DNA from: a plasmid
Length of the DNA stretch: 29,769 nucleotides
Sequence record: NZ_CP021967.1
Reading direction: 5' to 3' (one strand)
In this document: positions 1,218 to 27,900 of the stretch, one piece after another
Numbering within the stretch: the first letter of the stretch is position 1
Layout: each line of letters opens with the position of its first letter
The notes under the pieces: model-generated
Told to the model about the DNA's origin: nothing
The model's database searches: none
What the model saw: the letters and a program-made list of their open reading frames with translations, nothing else
Made by a program: the position numbers and the translations under genes

Positions 1218-1226
1218 TGTTATAAT
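1218..1226 (+). promoter_or_regulatory. Extended -10 promoter (TGTTATAAT) driving a short + strand transcript.
   Basis: Canonical TGnTATAAT. An intrinsic terminator lies ~85 nt downstream. Confidence 0.45.
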
Positions 1227-1232
1227 GAATAC

Positions 1233-1350
1233 AGAAAAAGGAAGCCTTGCGCTAACAAGACTTCCCATTATAGAGCCGTATAAGACGGTGGCAAACTTAA
1301 AACGATTAAATAACCGCTAGCTTGGCAGAGCTAAGGCGGTTATTTTTTTT
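1233..1350 (+). ncRNA. Candidate ~110-nt sRNA (antitoxin-like RNA of module a), ending in a bidirectional terminator shared with the convergent peptide gene.
   Basis: Promoter at 1218..1226. Terminator stem TAACCGC...GCGGTTA (1311..1342) plus a T8 tract. No plausible ORF with an RBS. Confidence 0.35.
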
Positions 1351-1444
1351 GTTGGTTTTTAATCAACTCAACAACTAATGCTAGTAAGGTAACTATGAAA
1401 GTACCAAACATTAGCATAAGCTGTAAAGCGTCCGATACGGACAC
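1340..1444 (-). CDS. 34-aa hydrophobic peptide (VSVSDALQLMLMFGTFIVTLLALVVELIKNQQKK; GTG start). Candidate Fst/Ldr-like type I toxin (module a).
   Basis: RBS AAGGAG lies 7 nt upstream of GTG. The peptide has a single TM-like core and a Lys-rich tail. The stop abuts the bidirectional terminator. An upstream TGTATAAT -10 on the minus strand (1551..1546) gives a ~95-nt 5' UTR. The ORF is under 60 aa and so is absent from the ORF track. Confidence 0.4.
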   Translation of the reverse strand: MSVSDALQLMLMFGTFIVTLLALVVELIKNQQKK

Positions 1445-1649
1445 TTGGGCTACTCCTTTCCTAGAATGTGAGTTTATAGTTTTTACACCATAAGCACCAC
1501 CCCCCTTAAGGAAATAGCCACCGCCTTAACTTCTCTACTTGAACTATTATACAGGATAAAGCGTGATTTACCTATTGATGATTAATGCTCTAATATCCTG
1601 AACGGCTAGTTTTCTATTTTCAATATAAATATAATTATCCGACATGTTT

Positions 1650-11589: not shown

Positions 11590-12613
11590 TAGATTGCAAG
11601 AATTAACCGAACACTGCAAACTGCTGAAAAACCTTTCGTGGTGATTGCCAGTTGAGTGTTTTCATTGGTCTCGCATTGATCCAATGATTAATTTGATCTA
11701 ATTCTTTGGCGCTAACTGTTTCAATTTTGCGTTCTTTCGGTATAAAACGACGGACGTATCGATTTAATATCTCATTACTCCCACGTTCTTCTGGTGAATA
11801 TGGGTGCGCAAAATAGACTGGAATGCCTAGTTTTTGCTCGATTTCATTATATTTTGCAAATTCTCGCCCACGATCAACAGTGATTGACTTGGCATTTTTG
11901 ATTCCTTGAAAAAAACGAATTAAGACTGGTGTCACTGCCTGACTATTGCGCCCAGTGACCTGTCTCACGATATGTTGCCGGCTTAGTCTTTCAGTAATTG
12001 TCACCAGCACATCGCCACGTCTTTTACCCGATTGCATGGTGTCAACTTCAAAATGTCCAAAGGTTTGTCGTGCTTTCACACTTTCAGGTCTCGTTTCAAT
12101 CGAACGGCCATGCACAAATACTTGTCGTCTACCATCAGATTGACGCTTTTGACGGATACCTTTGTCAGGTAAATCAGCCAATGATAGTTTGAGTCGACCA
12201 GCATTGAGCCAATTATAAATCGTTTTGAAAGGTAACCCTAAAACATGAGCAGCAGTTTCTGGTGACCACTTTAAAATGCCAATGTGCTCATTCAAAAAGA
12301 CAGCGATAGCTGGTGTTAGTGTGTGATGACGGCCACGTAGATGACGTTTTTTCAATGCCAATGCATGAGCAATATCAGCTTTATAGGGCGTGACTTGATG
12401 AATTTCAACAGAGACCGTCGCAGGTGATCGGTTAATAAAACGCGCGATGGCACGAATCGAATAATTCAATTCCAGCAAAGTTTGAATGACAGTACGTTCT
12501 TGAGATGATAAACTAGTCATGAGTCGCAGTTCCTTTATGGTTGTTTTGGACAATTACCATTAAAGGCGCTGCGGCTTTTTTATTCAAGTGTTCGGTTTAA
12601 TTTTACAATCTAC
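11588..12613 (-). mobile_element. IS30-family insertion sequence (1026 bp).
   Basis: Terminal IRs GGTAGATTGCAAGAATTAACCGAACA (11588..11613) and TGTTCGGTTTAATTTTACAATCTACC (12588..12613) flank a single 316-aa transposase. Confidence 0.85.
11603..12553 (-). CDS. IS30-family DDE transposase.
   Basis: N-terminal HTH, then the integrase core with HFEVDTM...DRGREF...NPYSPEERGSNE motifs. Confidence 0.9.
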   Translation of the reverse strand: MSKTTIKELRLMTSLSSQERTVIQTLLELNYSIRAIARFINRSPATVSVEIHQVTPYKADIAHALALKKRHLRGRHHTLTPAIAVFLNEHIGILKWSPETAAHVLGLPFKTIYNWLNAGRLKLSLADLPDKGIRQKRQSDGRRQVFVHGRSIETRPESVKARQTFGHFEVDTMQSGKRRGDVLVTITERLSRQHIVRQVTGRNSQAVTPVLIRFFQGIKNAKSITVDRGREFAKYNEIEQKLGIPVYFAHPYSPEERGSNEILNRYVRRFIPKERKIETVSAKELDQINHWINARPMKTLNWQSPRKVFQQFAVFG

Positions 12614-12961: not shown

Positions 12962-13246
12962 TTAGTCCGTGAGCGGTTTATGAGAGGGCTGTTTGTGCTT
13001 TTTGCGGAGGCGTAAACGGACCACCAACTTGTGTTGGGCGACTTCTTCGTCAGACAAGGTTAACTTCTCATCAATCGAGAAAGAGGTCGTTTTATAATTT
13101 TTGGCCAGGACAACCGCATAAACCGCCTGGTCAATCTGTTCACTTTGCTCGGGTGTTAAGGCAAACGTATAAGTCTTGTCGCCATACAAAATCGTTTTAT
13201 CAGGGGCTACGCGCGTAAAGCGGCCCTTAATTGCATTGTACGTCAT
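12962..13246 (-). CDS. Hypothetical protein, 94 aa.
   Basis: Intact ORF with a downstream terminator at 12835..12875. No family recognised. Confidence 0.5.
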   Translation of the reverse strand: MTYNAIKGRFTRVAPDKTILYGDKTYTFALTPEQSEQIDQAVYAVVLAKNYKTTSFSIDEKLTLSDEEVAQHKLVVRLRLRKKHKQPSHKPLTD

Positions 13247-13789
13247 AACAGCTCCTTTCTTGATTTTATTAGATAAATCTCATCAAAGGGGCGTTTATTA
13301 CCTTTTTGCCCCATAATAGAAATGTCGACTTAAACTTACTCCCCCAAGCGTTGAGGAGGGGTTACCTATCGGTTTATTTGCAATTTTACCCCCCTATTAG
13401 TAATTTGGGGGCTTGGTTAATTTTTTGAATCGTCTTTAATTGTCAAAAATAACAGTCTAGCCATCATACTATCAGCGTCACTGTATTTTAAAGTGGGCCA
13501 CCAGGCTTGCCCAGCGTACTGGCCCAAGCCTTTGAAACAGCAGAGCTGTTTCATGGCAATTATTGTTTATAATTATACACTGTCTTGCCCTGAAAGGAAA
13601 CTTGCTTCAAAAAAAGACAAACAAAAAGAGCTGGTGTTCCTACGCACTAGCCCTTTTTACTAGAGAGGTTAATCTCCATGTATTTCTTCCTGTCTATATT
13701 ATAGCATTGTATTAGTATCATTTCAAAACATGATATACTTAAAAAGCTGTTGTTTCCTACTATACGCGACGGCAAGGAGGTGAAACTCC

Positions 13790-13894
13790 ATGATATATTT
13801 CTTCCAAGAACTCACACAATTGTTCAACGCAATCTGTGTTGCTGTTGTGACGTTCGCAATCAAACATTATTTTGATGATCTTAATGATCGTTAA
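13790..13894 (+). CDS. 34-aa peptide MIYFFQELTQLFNAICVAVVTFAIKHYFDDLNDR. Candidate Fst-like type I toxin (module b).
   Basis: RBS AAGGAGGTG 8 nt upstream. TM core with a charged acidic tail. Intrinsic terminator 9 nt after the stop. The tandem-duplication breakpoint (13866/13867) falls inside this ORF. Confidence 0.45.
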   Translation: MIYFFQELTQLFNAICVAVVTFAIKHYFDDLNDR

Positions 13895-13896
13895 AA

Positions 13897-13976
13897 TAAT
13901 GTGGGCACCTTAAGGGTGCCTTTTTGTTTGCTTTTATTGTATAACACCTATTAATTGCGATAGTCCACTACAATTT
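13897..13976 (-). ncRNA. Candidate ~80-nt convergent sRNA (RNA II-like antitoxin of module b). A second copy lies at 15835..15914.
   Basis: Minus-strand TGTATAAT -10 (13989..13984). The transcript runs into the shared terminator. Confidence 0.3.
13903..13925. terminator. Bidirectional terminator shared by the module-b peptide mRNA and the convergent sRNA (duplicated at 15841..15863).
   Basis: GGCACC TTAA GGTGCC TTTTT. Confidence 0.7.
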
Positions 13977-14035
13977 TTTTGTTATTATACACTTACGTTT
14001 ACCGATTATTTTAATGTGGTTAAGCTGACATCAGC

Positions 14036-14235
14036 TTGCCCCGCGCGGGTAGCGTTCTGCATGACATGCTCCCACTGAAGGTGATCATGCAATGATAAAT
14101 TGCCCTGTCACGGCGTGACCCGCCGGAGGTTTTACAAGCCGGATAAGTGGCGCTGTAAAATAGCAGTTTCCCCAGCAGGAAGGGGAAACGCTACTGGCAT
14201 CGCTTGTCGATGACGCGCCTCGCAGAGCCTGTCCA
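14036..14235 (+). other. GC-rich multi-hairpin region resembling an ssoA-type single-strand origin. It contains TAGCGT (CS-6-like) and several perfect palindromes. Duplicated at 15974..16173.
   Basis: Palindromes CCGCGCGG, GTCACGGCGTGAC and GTTTCCCCAGCAGGAAGGGGAAAC. TAGCGTT at 14051 pairs with AACGCTA ~130 nt downstream. Local GC is far above that of its surroundings. Confidence 0.3.
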
Positions 14236-14246
14236 AAATAGAATTT

Positions 14247-14290
14247 TGGTATAACAGGCTATACCAGATTTTTAACGGTGTTATACTGGT
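14247..14290 (+). promoter_or_regulatory. Candidate MobV-type oriT. IR TGGTATA-N6-TATACCA followed by GGTGTTATACT (pMV158-like nick region GTG/TTATACT). Duplicated at 16185..16228.
   Basis: Lies immediately upstream of the mob remnant. The 10-mer GTGTTATACT matches the pMV158 oriT nick region as I remember it. Confidence 0.4.
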
Positions 14291-14322
14291 CTTGGAAAAC
14301 CTTTTTCGAGGAGGCATTTTTG

Positions 14323-14605
14323 ATGGCGCATTTAAAGAAAAATACGCGTGGCGCAGTCCCTGGTTTAGCAGTCCATTTTGAACGTAAAACTGACCATCAC
14401 ACTAACAAAGAAATTGATGTGTCGAAAACCTATCTGAATCAAGAGCTCATGGCGGATGGTTCAGATATGCTGTCACGTTTCAATGCGCGTTTAAATGACG
14501 TTTATTGCATGAAAAGAGACGATGTGAAGGCGTTAGCCACTTGGATTGTTACTTTTACCTGAAGAACTTGCAGAAGCGCCCTACGAGCAACAGAGCGCCT
14601 TTTTT
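14323..14605 (+). pseudogene. MobV/Pre-family relaxase, N-terminal ~95 codons only. Frameshifted near codon 80 and then truncated by the IS insertion.
   Basis: MAHLKKNTRGAVPGLAVHFERKTDHHTNKEIDVSKTYLNQEL aligns with the Pre/MobM N-terminus (HxxR, NxDIDxSKTYLNY-L). After ...WIVTFT* the +2 frame continues PEELAEAPYEQQSAFF (compare MobM EEQTRTFF) up to the IS terminus. Confidence 0.6.
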
Positions 14606-14646
14606 TGCTCAGAAGTCAATAAATTGGACTATTTTTATTCAGTTAC

Positions 14647-15488
14647 TTAGGCAACATTTGAGATACGATTGCGATTATAAAAATTGATATACCAACCAAT
14701 GGCTGCTTGGACTTGCGTTAATGTTTCGTATGCCTTCAAATACACCTCTTCACGTTTCAATATTGAATGAAATGCTTCCATACGGCCATTATCGTATGGA
14801 TGTCCTTTGAGTGAATATGAATGTTTCAAGCCATAATTTTGACATTTAATATTAAATTCAGCACTCGTGTATGTGACCCCATATCTGAATGAATAATTAA
14901 TGGCCTTCGATGCTTATCTAAAGCCATCTGTAAGGCACTTGTGGCTAGCTCGGCTGTCATTGTATCGCCAATTTTATAGCCCAATACTTTTCTCTTCTCA
15001 GGATCCAAAACGGTCGCTAAATAGACCCATCTGTGATTAGTCAACTGAATATAAGTGATATCTGTTTGCCAAACACCGCTCAAATCATGCAAGTGTCTAA
15101 TCAAATTGGGCTTTTGATCAACAGTCACCACAGTTTTTGGCTTGCGATAACGTTTTTGCATGCGGGATTTAATCCCTAATTCACGCATCAATTTGAGTGT
15201 CATATACCCAGATACTTTCGGACCGTCGGTTTGTTGACTATAAGCAGCAATACGGCGATAACCATAAAATTTAAAGGTTTTCCAAACGTCTAAAATATAA
15301 GGTTTTAGAGATTCTCTACGCTTTTCTTGTCGACTGGGCTGCCAATGGCGCCAGTTGTAATAGGTACTAGGTTTGATTTTAAGTGCACTTAAAATACGCA
15401 CAAGCGCGTAGCCTTGTGCTAAAAATTGGTTAACGAGCGGCAATCCCACATTACGGACTATTTTTTGGCTAGTAAGATGGCCGCTCAA
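14647..15488 (-). pseudogene. IS type-A orfB carrying the same 1-nt frameshift as at 6..802.
   Basis: The two ORF pieces 14826..15488 and 14647..14829 are identical to the other copies. Confidence 0.8.
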
Positions 15489-15494
15489 TGCCTG

Positions 15495-15737
15495 TCAGGC
15501 TATGTGTGATAAAATTTCGTTTTCTTCCTCCAAAATAGCGAGGCGCTTCTCTAGTTGCTTGACGTCTTTTAAAGTCTTTGACTGACCCTTGATCATGATT
15601 GGGGTAGCTTGTTTAAGCCAAATAGCAATAGAATCTTTCGACGGACCAAATTCTTCTGCTAATGATTTAAGTGAACGGCCTTCTTGGTGAAGTTTAACCA
15701 ATGAATCTTTGAAATCTTGTGAATAACGAATTGACAT
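15495..15737 (-). CDS. IS type-A orfA (80 aa; HTH + leucine zipper). It ends in TGA, in the same frame as orfB six nucleotides later.
   Basis: ...LEEENEILSHIA* then CAGGCA then TTG AGC GGC CAT... (orfB). The two ORFs share phase (249 nt apart). Confidence 0.85.
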   Translation of the reverse strand: MSIRYSQDFKDSLVKLHQEGRSLKSLAEEFGPSKDSIAIWLKQATPIMIKGQSKTLKDVKQLEKRLAILEEENEILSHIA

Positions 15738-16184
15738 AAAAATACTCCTATACTTTCATTTTACGGACTGAATAAAAATAGTCCATTTTTTTAGTATAAG
15801 AGCATTATTTTGATGATCTTAATGATCGTTAAAATAATGTGGGCACCTTAAGGGTGCCTTTTTGTTTGCTTTTATTGTATAACACCTATTAATTGCGATA
15901 GTCCACTACAATTTTTTTGTTATTATACACTTACGTTTACCGATTATTTTAATGTGGTTAAGCTGACATCAGCTTGCCCCGCGCGGGTAGCGTTCTGCAT
16001 GACATGCTCCCACTGAAGGTGATCATGCAATGATAAATTGCCCTGTCACGGCGTGACCCGCCGGAGGTTTTACAAGCCGGATAAGTGGCGCTGTAAAATA
16101 GCAGTTTCCCCAGCAGGAAGGGGAAACGCTACTGGCATCGCTTGTCGATGACGCGCCTCGCAGAGCCTGTCCAAAATAGAATTT

Positions 16185-16228
16185 TGGTATAACAGGCTAT
16201 ACCAGATTTTTAACGGTGTTATACTGGT
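16185..16228 (+). promoter_or_regulatory. Second copy of the candidate MobV-type oriT.
   Basis: Identical to 14247..14290. Confidence 0.4.
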
Positions 16229-16260
16229 CTTGGAAAACCTTTTTCGAGGAGGCATTTTTG

Positions 16261-16543
16261 ATGGCGCATTTAAAGAAAAATACGCGTGGCGCAGTCCCTG
16301 GTTTAGCAGTCCATTTTGAACGTAAAACTGACCATCACACTAACAAAGAAATTGATGTGTCGAAAACCTATCTGAATCAAGAGCTCATGGCGGATGGTTC
16401 AGATATGCTGTCACGTTTCAATGCGCGTTTAAATGACGTTTATTGCATGAAAAGAGACGATGTGAAGGCGTTAGCCACTTGGATTGTTACTTTTACCTGA
16501 AGAACTTGCAGAAGCGCCCTACGAGCAACAGAGCGCCTTTTTT
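16261..16543 (+). pseudogene. Second copy of the MobV relaxase N-terminal remnant.
   Basis: Identical to 14323..14605. Confidence 0.6.
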
Positions 16544-16584
16544 TGCTCAGAAGTCAATAAATTGGACTATTTTTATTCAGTTAC

Positions 16585-17426
16585 TTAGGCAACATTTGAG
16601 ATACGATTGCGATTATAAAAATTGATATACCAACCAATGGCTGCTTGGACTTGCGTTAATGTTTCGTATGCCTTCAAATACACCTCTTCACGTTTCAATA
16701 TTGAATGAAATGCTTCCATACGGCCATTATCGTATGGATGTCCTTTGAGTGAATATGAATGTTTCAAGCCATAATTTTGACATTTAATATTAAATTCAGC
16801 ACTCGTGTATGTGACCCCATATCTGAATGAATAATTAATGGCCTTCGATGCTTATCTAAAGCCATCTGTAAGGCACTTGTGGCTAGCTCGGCTGTCATTG
16901 TATCGCCAATTTTATAGCCCAATACTTTTCTCTTCTCAGGATCCAAAACGGTCGCTAAATAGACCCATCTGTGATTAGTCAACTGAATATAAGTGATATC
17001 TGTTTGCCAAACACCGCTCAAATCATGCAAGTGTCTAATCAAATTGGGCTTTTGATCAACAGTCACCACAGTTTTTGGCTTGCGATAACGTTTTTGCATG
17101 CGGGATTTAATCCCTAATTCACGCATCAATTTGAGTGTCATATACCCAGATACTTTCGGACCGTCGGTTTGTTGACTATAAGCAGCAATACGGCGATAAC
17201 CATAAAATTTAAAGGTTTTCCAAACGTCTAAAATATAAGGTTTTAGAGATTCTCTACGCTTTTCTTGTCGACTGGGCTGCCAATGGCGCCAGTTGTAATA
17301 GGTACTAGGTTTGATTTTAAGTGCACTTAAAATACGCACAAGCGCGTAGCCTTGTGCTAAAAATTGGTTAACGAGCGGCAATCCCACATTACGGACTATT
17401 TTTTGGCTAGTAAGATGGCCGCTCAA
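16585..17426 (-). pseudogene. IS type-A orfB with the same frameshift.
   Basis: Identical to 14647..15488. Confidence 0.8.
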
Positions 17427-17432
17427 TGCCTG

Positions 17433-17675
17433 TCAGGCTATGTGTGATAAAATTTCGTTTTCTTCCTCCAAAATAGCGAGGCGCTTCTCTAGTTGCTTGA
17501 CGTCTTTTAAAGTCTTTGACTGACCCTTGATCATGATTGGGGTAGCTTGTTTAAGCCAAATAGCAATAGAATCTTTCGACGGACCAAATTCTTCTGCTAA
17601 TGATTTAAGTGAACGGCCTTCTTGGTGAAGTTTAACCAATGAATCTTTGAAATCTTGTGAATAACGAATTGACAT
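17433..17675 (-). CDS. IS type-A orfA.
   Basis: Identical to 15495..15737. Confidence 0.85.
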   Translation of the reverse strand: MSIRYSQDFKDSLVKLHQEGRSLKSLAEEFGPSKDSIAIWLKQATPIMIKGQSKTLKDVKQLEKRLAILEEENEILSHIA

Positions 17676-17742
17676 AAAAATACTCCTATACTTTCATTTT
17701 ACGGACTGAATAAAAATAGTCCATTTTTTTAGTATAAGAGCA

Positions 17743-27099: not shown

Positions 27100-27900
27100 A
27101 AAATCTGCCACCAAACACGGAAACCGCGCGACAGCCAACCGCCACCACAACAGTTAAGATCGCCCGTGGTTATTATTATGATTGTGACTTTTTTTATTGT
27201 CTTTAAATCTAAATCAATAGAGAAAACTAAAAGAAGTTGTTGACACAGGAAGTTACAAATGCTTGATTAAGAGTGAGGGAAGTTTTGAGCTGAAGATAGT
27301 TTTCCCCTTGTTTTGGGAAGAAGAAAACTTTACTGTTAACAAACACTTGACCGATCGTTCAGTCGTCCGTCACCTTATCCATACAAGCCTTGGTTTTACC
27401 CGCCTGCTTTAATTAACTACTTTATTCATTAAACCAATAAAAAAACGCCCTTATTGGCGCTGTATCACTATATTTATTATCTTTTTCGCGTTATACAGCT
27501 TAAATACAAGCCCTGTGTCCGTAGACACCGTTTTACCTGCCGAGCCGTTTGTGGCCGCTCTCACCCTACTACACGCCCAGTATGGATTGTTTGTGTAGCA
27601 CCCACATATTTTTGTACAGTAGTGTCTGGGAAAATGGCACTTGTCTATTTTTTCGTATACCATATACAGCGATTTGGATCTTCCGAGTCACACTAGGTAA
27701 CTACCCCCTACACGTCATATATGCCATACCCCTTAAAGTGTTTGGCTTCACTCTTTTTGAAATCACCCACATTTACAACACAAAGGTTATGTTATATAAT
27801 ATAGATACACATTCTCGTACATATAAGAATCATGTAGCTATCAAGGATTGCCGTCCTTGGTGGCTTTTCTTTTTGTAATAAATTAATTATCTCAATTTAT
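27100..27900. other. Structured non-coding region with higher GC than its flanks. Hairpins include CAAGGATTGCCGTCCTTGG+T-run at ~27842..27875, and there is a DnaA-box-like TTATCCATA at ~27378. Candidate origin or ncRNA.
   Basis: No ORF with an RBS. Short ORFs overlap each other on both strands. Lies beside the iteron array and the partition genes. Confidence 0.3.

Follow-up and report, generated by a model that had tools for sequence, protein, structure and literature searches.

The window analysed here is a 29,769-nt stretch of the plasmid record NZ_CP021967.1, and all coordinates were counted within it. The plasmid is of the Leuconostoc mesenteroides type, and positions 13500-14300 were found to be 100% identical to NZ_CP128561.1. 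The element under study lies inside this segment and consists of a 34-codon open reading frame (ORF), the candidate toxin gene, and an oppositely transcribed gene for a small RNA (sRNA) directly upstream, the candidate antitoxin. Together they make up a putative type I toxin-antitoxin (TA) module with the following features.

13618-13693, minus strand: candidate antitoxin sRNA, about 75 nt, with ends placed from the promoter and terminator positions
13628-13653, minus strand: sRNA terminator hairpin, with the loop 5'-GUAGGAA-3' (plus-strand coordinates 13637-13643) and a U-run at 13627-13618
13665-13690, minus strand: repeat copy of the toxin translation initiation region, GAGGTTAATCTCCATG / ATGTATTTCTTCC (repeats D5 and D7)
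13698-13726, minus strand: sRNA promoter, with -35 TTGAAA (13726-13721), a 17-nt spacer and TG plus -10 TATAAT (13703-13698)
13712-13739, plus strand: putative toxin promoter, read from the sequence, with extended -10 TGaTATACT (13731-13739) and weak -35 TTAGTA (13712-13717)
13745-13925, plus strand: predicted toxin mRNA, about 180 nt
13746-13773, plus strand: 5'-terminal hairpin of the mRNA, with the loop UUCCUAC at 13754-13760
13790-13894, plus strand: candidate toxin ORF, 34 codons, encoding MIYFFQELTQLFNAICVAVVTFAIKHYFDDLNDR
13864-13902, plus strand: 17-bp 3' hairpin of the toxin mRNA
13903-13925, plus strand: toxin terminator, GGGCACC-TTAA-GGGTGCC plus T5

An earlier sequence-only reading of this locus had proposed a 34-codon ORF with a strong ribosome-binding site and a terminator 9 nt past the stop codon, and all three were borne out: the ORF occupies 13790-13894 and encodes the peptide given above, a Shine-Dalgarno (SD) sequence, AAGGAGG, is present at 13774-13780 with the ATG 9 nt on, and the hairpin with its T5 run was located at 13903-13925. 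The ORF was found at full length by tblastn in 51 plasmids of PLSDB, and scans of genome and metagenome collections yielded 29 more loci, 23 of them with the full or nearly full ORF; one locus resides on a 2.0-Mb contig of L. aquikimchii. The 158 PLSDB plasmids matching 13500-14300 belong mostly to Leuconostoc, Weissella and Enterococcus. The sequence types compared included the window itself (WIN) and the loci designated L012, L009, L008, L027 and L035, together with a sister subtype, L010/L040. The codon count was exactly 34 in all 19 loci for which it was compared, with pairwise ratios of nonsynonymous to synonymous substitution (dN/dS) of 0.04-0.55 and 26 of the 52 variable sites in third codon positions, and the divergent versions also have 34 codons each, apart from the 32 codons of the L010 subtype. 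Judged by these comparisons, the ORF is a real, conserved gene under purifying selection, and the proposal that a plasmid of a lactic acid bacterium carries a gene for a small hydrophobic peptide resembling type I toxins was supported.

The divergent peptides are MAIFFQELTQLFNAICVAVVMFAIKRYFDDRDGR (L009), MVALIQELTLVLNAFFVSLAMFAIKRYFDDRDGR (L008), MSLLFDELTTISNALFVAVAMFAIKRYFDDRDGR (L027), MALLFQELTTLNNAICVAVVMFAIKRYFDDRDGR (L035) and (M)IFLNEMRELANAIFVALVAILLQKWFDDHNH (L010), the last apparently initiated at TTG. A single helix spanning residues 2-32 was predicted by AlphaFold with a predicted local distance difference test score (pLDDT) of 94.6. The peptide is named only "hypothetical" or "uncharacterized" in public databases, and no gene is annotated over the ORF in the PLSDB gene tables. 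One further occurrence of this Leuconostoc plasmid module, with a peptide 94% identical, was observed at L019 (JAFRKN010000005.1), a contig labelled "Candidatus Saccharibacteria bacterium" in a metagenome-assembled genome from goat jejunum; this is probably a mis-binned plasmid contig. Scans of five peptide variants with Pfam, NCBIfam and PADLOC returned no family match (E<=10 for Pfam and NCBIfam, with sensitivity limited by the shortness of the peptides), the lone NCBIfam match, to NADH-quinone oxidoreductase M at E = 0.056, being dismissed as noise far below the cut-off. A phmmer search against 1.8 billion representatives recovered only the peptide's own cluster, and the family profile searched against PDB chains produced 19 chance matches at E<=10, none of which was named Fst, PepA1 or LdrD. 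The literature on the peptide sequence gave nothing relevant; the supplement of Fozo et al. 2010, which holds more than 2,000 untested candidates, was outside this search and could list the ORF.

The promoter of the sRNA proved to be the best sigma-70-like site in 13350-14300, the range scanned for promoters and terminators, with 11 of 12 matches plus the TG, and TATAAT or TACAAT occurs at the same position in L008, L009, L027 and L035. In the predicted fold (-19.8 kcal/mol, z = -2.3) the single-stranded 5' tail of the sRNA (ACAGGAAGAAA) is followed by two stem-loops, the second of which is the terminator. It is present as a single copy in the window. The segment 13606-13690 is a direct repeat of 13722-13805 (D1, 76%; D5, 88%; D7, 92%; spacing 112-116 overall and 112-115 for D5 and D7), in which the repeat's own reading frame has been destroyed (MYFFLSIL*) and the complementarity retained. 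Since the sRNA gene is an oppositely read direct-repeat copy of the first ~85 nt of the toxin transcript, the sRNA would be a trans-encoded, imperfect antisense RNA. No Rfam family was matched at its gathering score over 13500-14100. A search at E<=10 gave only sub-threshold matches, the best with E>0.7; these, including ctRNA_pND324, MicA and rli28, were set aside as noise.

The pairing of the two RNAs was assessed with RNAduplex against 300 simple shuffles. The duplex of the sRNA with the toxin 5' region was calculated at -52.9 kcal/mol compared to -24.5 +/- 4.0 kcal/mol for the shuffles (z = -7.1, 0/300), and the 30-nt 5' body of the sRNA alone gave -32.0 kcal/mol (z = -8.6). The predicted targets are the SD sequence, the start codon and codons 2-6, to which is added a loop-to-loop contact with the mRNA 5' hairpin, where the sRNA terminator loop GUAGGAA faces the mRNA loop UUCCUAC (13754-13760). 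Both contact loops were unpaired in the single-molecule folds.

This pairing was found to be specific to each sequence type, in that every repeat matched its own initiation region. The repeat cores concerned are TATTTCTTCC (WIN), TACTTTTTTC (L012), AATCTTTTTCC (L009), CTCTTATAC (L008), CACTCTTATTC (L027) and GCACTTTTATTCC (L035). In a 7 x 7 matrix the cognate duplexes ranged from -47 to -55.5 kcal/mol, whereas non-cognate duplexes between distant types ranged from -23 to -35 kcal/mol. Covariation was counted over four intermolecular helices in a concatenated alignment of 13 sequences, where 90.8% of the intermolecular cells were paired compared to 42-53% with the partner slid by 1-3 columns. 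Changes on both sides were observed in 16 of 30 pairs (shuffle mean 6.2, 0/500), and the covariation score was 0.318 against 0.161 for shuffled alignments (0/500). The loop-loop helix was 96.7% paired with three of its seven pairs compensatory, the mRNA loop UUCCUAC being replaced by UUCCCAC in L009 and by CUCCAAC in L027 and the sRNA loop co-varying; in helices 2-4, compensatory changes were found in 9 of 23 pairs. A functionless, decaying duplicate of the toxin 5' end, with the toxin left unregulated or regulated otherwise, would likewise appear as a direct repeat whose reading frame is lost. A neutral relic is, however, not expected to retain an outward promoter close to consensus or a terminator, the complementarity to the own toxin has been kept through seven diverged sequence types, and the repeat defines a boundary of the module; such a relic is considered extremely unlikely.

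The sequence-only reading had instead sought the antitoxin beyond the toxin terminator, in a convergent RNA of about 80 nt that would start from a minus-strand TGTATAAT promoter and end at the shared hairpin. An antitoxin of this kind would act through the overlap of 3' ends or terminator loops. The corresponding feature was judged to lie outside the module:

13926-13985, minus strand: body of the proposed convergent sRNA plus the TGTATAAT box

The TGTATAAT box, a perfect -10 hexamer, is indeed present (plus-strand coordinates 13974-13981), but it was not called by the promoter scan because no acceptable -35 accompanies it. The hairpin at 13904-13920 is also terminator-like on the minus strand, although the minus-strand tail, CACAUUAUUU, is poor, and a shared terminator is known in par of pAD1 (PMC7472228). 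Segment 13926-14010 is further kept at 97-99% identity beside toxin 3' fragments in plasmids lacking the rest of the gene, a retention explained equally well by linkage to the adjacent origin of transfer (oriT) and mobV. The complementarity suggested between the mRNA 5' region and the body of this RNA was not found (13927-13972: -17.5 kcal/mol, z = -1.0, 53/300 shuffles as good), and the downstream RNA overlaps the toxin mRNA at the shared hairpin only. The sequence beyond the terminator is unrelated in L008, L009, L025, L027 and L035 and partly so in L014, L024 and L034, yet the toxins of these loci are intact and all of the loci carry the upstream sRNA instead. The box itself lies within a motif, TTGTT..ATTATACACT, which is repeated on the left flank at 13563-13581 and is found on both sides of the module. 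With no -35, no complementarity to the initiation region and no conservation together with the toxin, the convergent RNA did not hold up as the antitoxin and is regarded as a very unlikely candidate, and the sequence comparisons point to the upstream sRNA, not the downstream RNA, as the likely antidote of the toxin.

The extent of the module was deduced from the conserved block, whose left edge falls exactly at the sRNA U-run and whose right edge falls at the toxin terminator. Since these edges coincide with both terminators, the module was assigned to 13618-13925. All 48 of the PLSDB plasmids with the sRNA region also carry the intact ORF, and among the fetched loci an intact toxin was accompanied by the sRNA in every case bar L028, where the contig stops before the sRNA terminator. 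The sRNA was found in none of the fetched loci having a toxin fragment only.

A different arrangement was observed for L010/L040 (plasmids of L. carnosum and L. mesenteroides), in which the repeat lies downstream of the toxin and is convergent. For the sRNA of this subtype, an outward TATAAT box and a separate terminator were identified, and two-site pairing was again predicted, GUUAAGAAAAA pairing with the initiation region and the loop CUAUCAC pairing with the loop GUGAUAG; this duplex was calculated at -44.7 kcal/mol (z = -3.7, 0/300). Between L010 and L040, which are 95% identical, TTTTTCTTAAC is changed to TTATTTTTAGAC in both the initiation region and the repeat. Given the convergent antisense RNA in L010/L040, the general picture drawn in the sequence-only reading was reasonable but misplaced at the present locus. 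The convergent subtype is carried by non-mobilizable Leuconostoc plasmids (L010, 1380-1760, and L040), and in L010 the module lies near a lactococcin-family bacteriocin gene and a GtrA gene.

The toxin transcript was assigned to a promoter that interdigitates with the divergent sRNA promoter and that was not called by the simple scan because its -35 is weak. The TGnTATA(C/A/T)T box is nevertheless kept in all types, including L008, L027, L035 and L010. The predicted mRNA has a 5' untranslated region (UTR) of ~45 nt and is heavily structured, with a minimum free energy of -62.6 kcal/mol (z = -6.2), and the RNAalifold consensus contains compensatory changes in 18 of 53 pairs, UA being replaced by CG three times in the 3' hairpin. 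The SD sequence is predicted to be occluded, either through pairing with codons 4-5 (consensus fold) or within a local GGAG/CUCC hairpin (single-sequence fold). Protected ends and a hidden SD sequence are marks of stable addiction-toxin mRNAs (PMC7472228).

Taken together, these data indicate that 13618-13925 is probably a self-contained type I TA module, that is, a plasmid addiction module, of an undescribed family. We infer from the sequence that both transcripts exist and that the peptide is toxic, and the order of pairing and the difference in RNA stability were deduced in the same way. The toxin would be a 34-residue helical membrane-type peptide made from the ~180-nt heavily structured mRNA, and the antitoxin would be the ~75-nt sRNA expressed divergently from a strong promoter directly upstream. 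First contact would be made at the complementary 7-nt loops GUAGGAA/UUCCUAC, through the single-stranded 5' tail of the sRNA, or both. Pairing would then extend over the SD sequence, the AUG and codons 2-6, blocking ribosome binding and possibly forming a substrate for RNase III. After loss of the plasmid, the less structured sRNA would decay first and the stable mRNA would then be translated.

Several observations weigh against this interpretation. The -35 box of the toxin promoter is weak, and on the minus strand the stem of the sRNA terminator includes an A.C mismatch; the only terminator call of the scan at this place was on the plus strand (13630-13651), the minus-strand hairpin being seen in the fold. 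Part of the covariation could stem from gene conversion and not from selection, since the toxin 5' region and the sRNA gene are direct repeats of each other. The hydrophobicity of the peptide is only moderate, with polar residues at Q6, E7, T9, Q10, N13 and T21, and its tail is mixed or acidic, so that it may not be a membrane-damaging toxin.

One alternative is that the ORF encodes a non-toxic small membrane or helical protein, such as a regulator or accessory of a plasmid function, whose translation is only tuned by the sRNA without any addiction. In keeping with this, the protein is conserved under purifying selection, its hydrophobicity is moderate, its polar residues E7 and N13 and its FDD motif are invariant, copies of the ORF are also found on large contigs of L. 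aquikimchii and L. kimchii that are probably chromosomal, and no homology to proven toxins was found. On the other hand, the module lies on plasmids in the overwhelming majority of cases and is compact, autonomous and mobile, the co-occurrence of toxin and sRNA is strict with a toxin-only locus never seen, the structured mRNA with its occluded SD sequence and protected ends is typical of addiction toxins, and the gene has repeatedly been inactivated by truncation exactly where the sRNA was lost. A non-toxic role is therefore deemed unlikely, and the addiction module is preferred.

The module was compared to the known type I systems. It shows the general hallmarks of type I, namely a small helical protein and, next to its gene, an antisense sRNA gene with complementarity to the mRNA, as well as the par-like feature of oppositely transcribed direct repeats complementary to the toxin initiation region. 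The closest system in logic is par (Fst/RNA I - RNA II of Enterococcus faecalis pAD1, with the homologues Lpt of Lactobacillus rhamnosus and SprA1/PepA1). Both are plasmid-borne in Lactobacillales and encode a peptide of ~30-35 residues with a hydrophobic helix, an aromatic residue and a charged tail. They also have in common an antitoxin RNA transcribed oppositely across direct repeats of the toxin initiation region, two-site pairing by loop-loop contact and sequestration of the SD sequence and start codon, and intramolecular hiding of the SD sequence with a protected mRNA 5' end (PMC7472228). Convergent promoters with a shared bidirectional terminator, as in par, were not found: the genes here are divergent and the sRNA has its own terminator, as it does in L010/L040. 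The loop-loop contact also differs, as the sRNA terminator loop kisses the 5' hairpin of the mRNA here and the mRNA terminator in par.

The description of the peptide as Fst-like was not upheld in the sense of family membership, since neither Pfam (Fst_toxin included), NCBIfam nor the solved Fst, PepA1 and LdrD chains gave a match, and the APxxxG / [PDST]xxxG(C) motif of the par peptides is absent. The [P/D/S/T]xxxG(C) motif lies within the transmembrane helix in the Fst/Ldr superfamily (PMC7472228); on inspection of the present peptide alignments its spacing was not conserved, and the helices of L008 and L027 contain neither Gly nor Cys. The Fst/Ldr superfamily has a conserved Trp between the hydrophobic helix and the charged C terminus (PMC7472228). 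In the present peptides the boundary motif K-[RH]-[YH]-F-D-D contains an aromatic residue and the tail is charged, with Trp occurring in L010/L040 only (QKWFDD) and Tyr or His in the others.

In its layout the module resembles dinQ/agrB, zorO/orzO, tisB/istR-1 and shoB/ohsC of Escherichia coli, whose sRNA genes are likewise 5', divergent and non-overlapping with limited trans complementarity (PMC2887945, PMC8594479). No toxin homology to the TisB, ShoB, Zor and DinQ families was found among the profiled families, and the layout alone matches. The agrB gene is itself derived from a repeat of the dinQ sequence. The E. coli divergent families have been reported from Gram-negative bacteria only (PMC8594479) and are chromosomal, whereas the present module lies on a Gram-positive plasmid; the 5' UTRs of zorO and z3289/z3290 are ~170-180 nt (PMC5397157, PMC2887945) compared to ~45 nt here; and several of these families pair away from the SD sequence, whereas the present sRNA covers the SD sequence and start codon directly. 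According to T1TAdb, all Gram-positive families have a 3'-overlapping antisense RNA, the divergent ones being Gram-negative only (PMC8594479). The question whether the divergent layout occurs in Gram-positive bacteria had already been raised by Fozo et al. 2010 (PMC2887945), and a literature search for divergent Gram-positive type I systems gave nothing relevant.

From these comparisons, we lean somewhat towards regarding the module as the founding example of a type I TA family of Leuconostoc, Weissella and Enterococcus plasmids, in which the antitoxin gene was born through a tandem repeat of the toxin 5' end that is transcribed in the opposite direction; one subfamily has this gene 5' of the toxin and divergent, a second has it 3' and convergent. 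Divergent, non-overlapping, trans-acting antitoxins have so far been reported only in enterobacteria, so that this one would be the first from Gram-positive bacteria, and the family would comprise seven co-evolved toxin/antitoxin specificity types. If this is correct, a new family would be added to the short list of type I systems, based on a gene left unannotated or "hypothetical" in ~50 food-fermentation plasmids, and the divergent trans-antisense layout would not be confined to Gram-negative bacteria. It would also mean that antitoxin genes can arise through duplication of a toxin 5' end plus an outward promoter, with later relocation. The seven co-varying types would form a set for studies of cross-talk and incompatibility among co-resident plasmids, and the 308-bp module would be a candidate stabilisation cassette for vectors of Leuconostoc and Lactobacillales.

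The toxin gene is also the site of a tandem duplication associated with an IS3-family insertion sequence (IS), 13865-15804 being an exact repeat of 15803-17742 with a period of 1,938 and 100% identity over 1,940 nt. The following features were assigned in this region.

14606-15804, minus strand: IS3-family element, copy 1, with orfA (80 aa) and a split orfB, Pfam HTH_Tnp_1, HTH_21 and rve, and the inner end TGCTCAG...
15805-15863, plus strand: toxin 3' remnant in unit 2, with the last 9 codons (the CA of codon 26 coming from the IS end), the 3' hairpin and the terminator
16544-17742, minus strand: IS3-family element, copy 2, abutting a truncated VIT1/CCC1 gene

The layout can be written as N-C-X-IS-C-X-IS-Y, where N stands for the toxin gene as far as codon 26, C for the part from codon 26 onwards, X for oriT with the IS-truncated MobV relaxase gene and Y for a VIT1/CCC1 fragment. 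The MobV/Pre relaxase gene (14278-14562) has been cut to 94 codons by the IS3 element at 14606. The orfB of the IS is split (220 + 60 aa), from which the element may be defective. As stated in the sequence-only reading, the second copy, whose start falls in codon 26 (CAT), retains the final 9 codons and the terminator. The antitoxin RNA also ascribed to unit 2 is not there, as the co-varying sRNA lies upstream at 13618-13693; being single-copy in the window and outside the duplicated segment, it leaves unit 2 without an antidote and not with an orphan antitoxin. Overall, the sequence-only reading was partly supported: its observation was confirmed in part, and its interpretation was right in kind but wrong on the antitoxin RNA, the Fst membership and the orphan antitoxin.

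The junction of the two units coincides to the base, with a 2-nt overlap, with the outer terminus (...TAGTATAAGAGCA) of the IS3-family element, as defined by alignment with two unrelated insertion sites, and the breakpoint is not a random one. Given a junction exactly at the IS3 terminus, unit 2 was deduced to hold only a promoterless 3' remnant of the toxin gene. The duplication would be a separate IS3-mediated event, in which the IS inserted into the ORF of a sister copy and unequal crossover between IS copies followed; this is inferred as the simplest route. The outcome would be one intact TA pair and an inert toxin 3' fragment, and the lesson for annotation is that IS-rearranged toxin 3' fragments are not to be taken for orphan antitoxins.

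An assembly artefact, in which the IS copies were mis-resolved in a long-read or hybrid assembly, was considered for 13865-17742, as an identical duplication absent from other records could arise in this way. The units are 100% identical over their 1,940 nt, the closest relative, NZ_CP128561.1, has a single unit, and a search for the junction among PLSDB plasmids and the metagenome contigs of the Joint Genome Institute (JGI) did not find it, the apparent megablast extensions past the IS end being shown by alignment to be due to chance. Against an artefact, the junction falls at the exact IS terminus with the 2-nt overlap that a transposition product would show. Moreover, Enterococcus plasmids show a fusion to sequence from inside this IS at 13869/70, with unchanged orientation and 4 nt from the window junction, and this second fusion may derive from a window-type IS-ORF junction by microhomology deletion. 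An artefact is thought to be possible but distinctly less probable than a true IS3-mediated duplication.

In other plasmids, a third truncation of the toxin was found at 13844, beside an asp23 operon. The three junctions, 13844, 13865 and 13869/70, lie within 26 nt of each other, at or near the 17-bp hairpin 13864-13902, and the truncated-toxin loci are L006, L007, L026 and L036-L039. All three truncations have removed the sRNA and the 5' part of the toxin, leaving the 3' hairpin and terminator together with the mob-proximal segment. This cluster could mean that the hairpin is a hot spot for recombination or IS insertion, or that inactivation of the toxin is selected for upon loss of the antitoxin.

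A second type I module, of the known txpA/RatA-type family and probably the module a of the sequence-only reading, was observed in the window at 1223-1560.

1223-1312, plus strand: Rfam RatA, 91.6 bits
1340-1444, minus strand: TxpA-like 34-residue ORF, MSVSDALQLMLMFGTFIVTLLALVVELIKNQQKK
1378-1560, minus strand: Rfam rli28, 69.3 bits, overlapping most of the TxpA-like ORF

It resembles the studied module in being a type I TA system with a 34-residue hydrophobic peptide on the same plasmid. It is, however, convergent with a 3'-overlapping antisense RNA and has Rfam matches, whereas the studied module matches no Rfam family (E<=10), and the studied peptide is visibly different from MSVSDALQLMLMFGTFIVTLLALVVELIKNQQKK when judged by eye.

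The left neighbour of the TA module is the following gene:

12962-13246, minus strand: 94-residue ORF, WP_002816252.1, hypothetical, without a Pfam match

The WP_002816252.1 ORF is also the left neighbour in L001, L003 and L009, with a variant, WP_072614535.1, in L002, and an IS30-family transposase is located at 11603-12553 (minus strand). The TA module is bracketed by collinear short repeats (13484-13496 ~ 14007-14019, 13505-13516 ~ 14034-14045, 13546-13569 ~ 13920-13943 and 13563-13581 ~ 13975-13993), the outer ones oriT-like in look with an inverted repeat beside each. These collinear repeats suggest that the TA module perhaps lies inside a duplicated oriT-proximal segment, with a significance that is uncertain because they are short and AT-rich. 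Finally, a strong duplex predicted between the toxin 5' region and 27526-27585 was rejected as a G+C-rich chance match without module features. The surrounding segment, 27500-27600, is G+C-richer, gives chance duplexes with the toxin 5' region of -28 to -30 kcal/mol and has no convincing ORF, with a promoter-like TATAAT cluster downstream near 27790; a role in replication control or as a structured RNA is possible for this segment.

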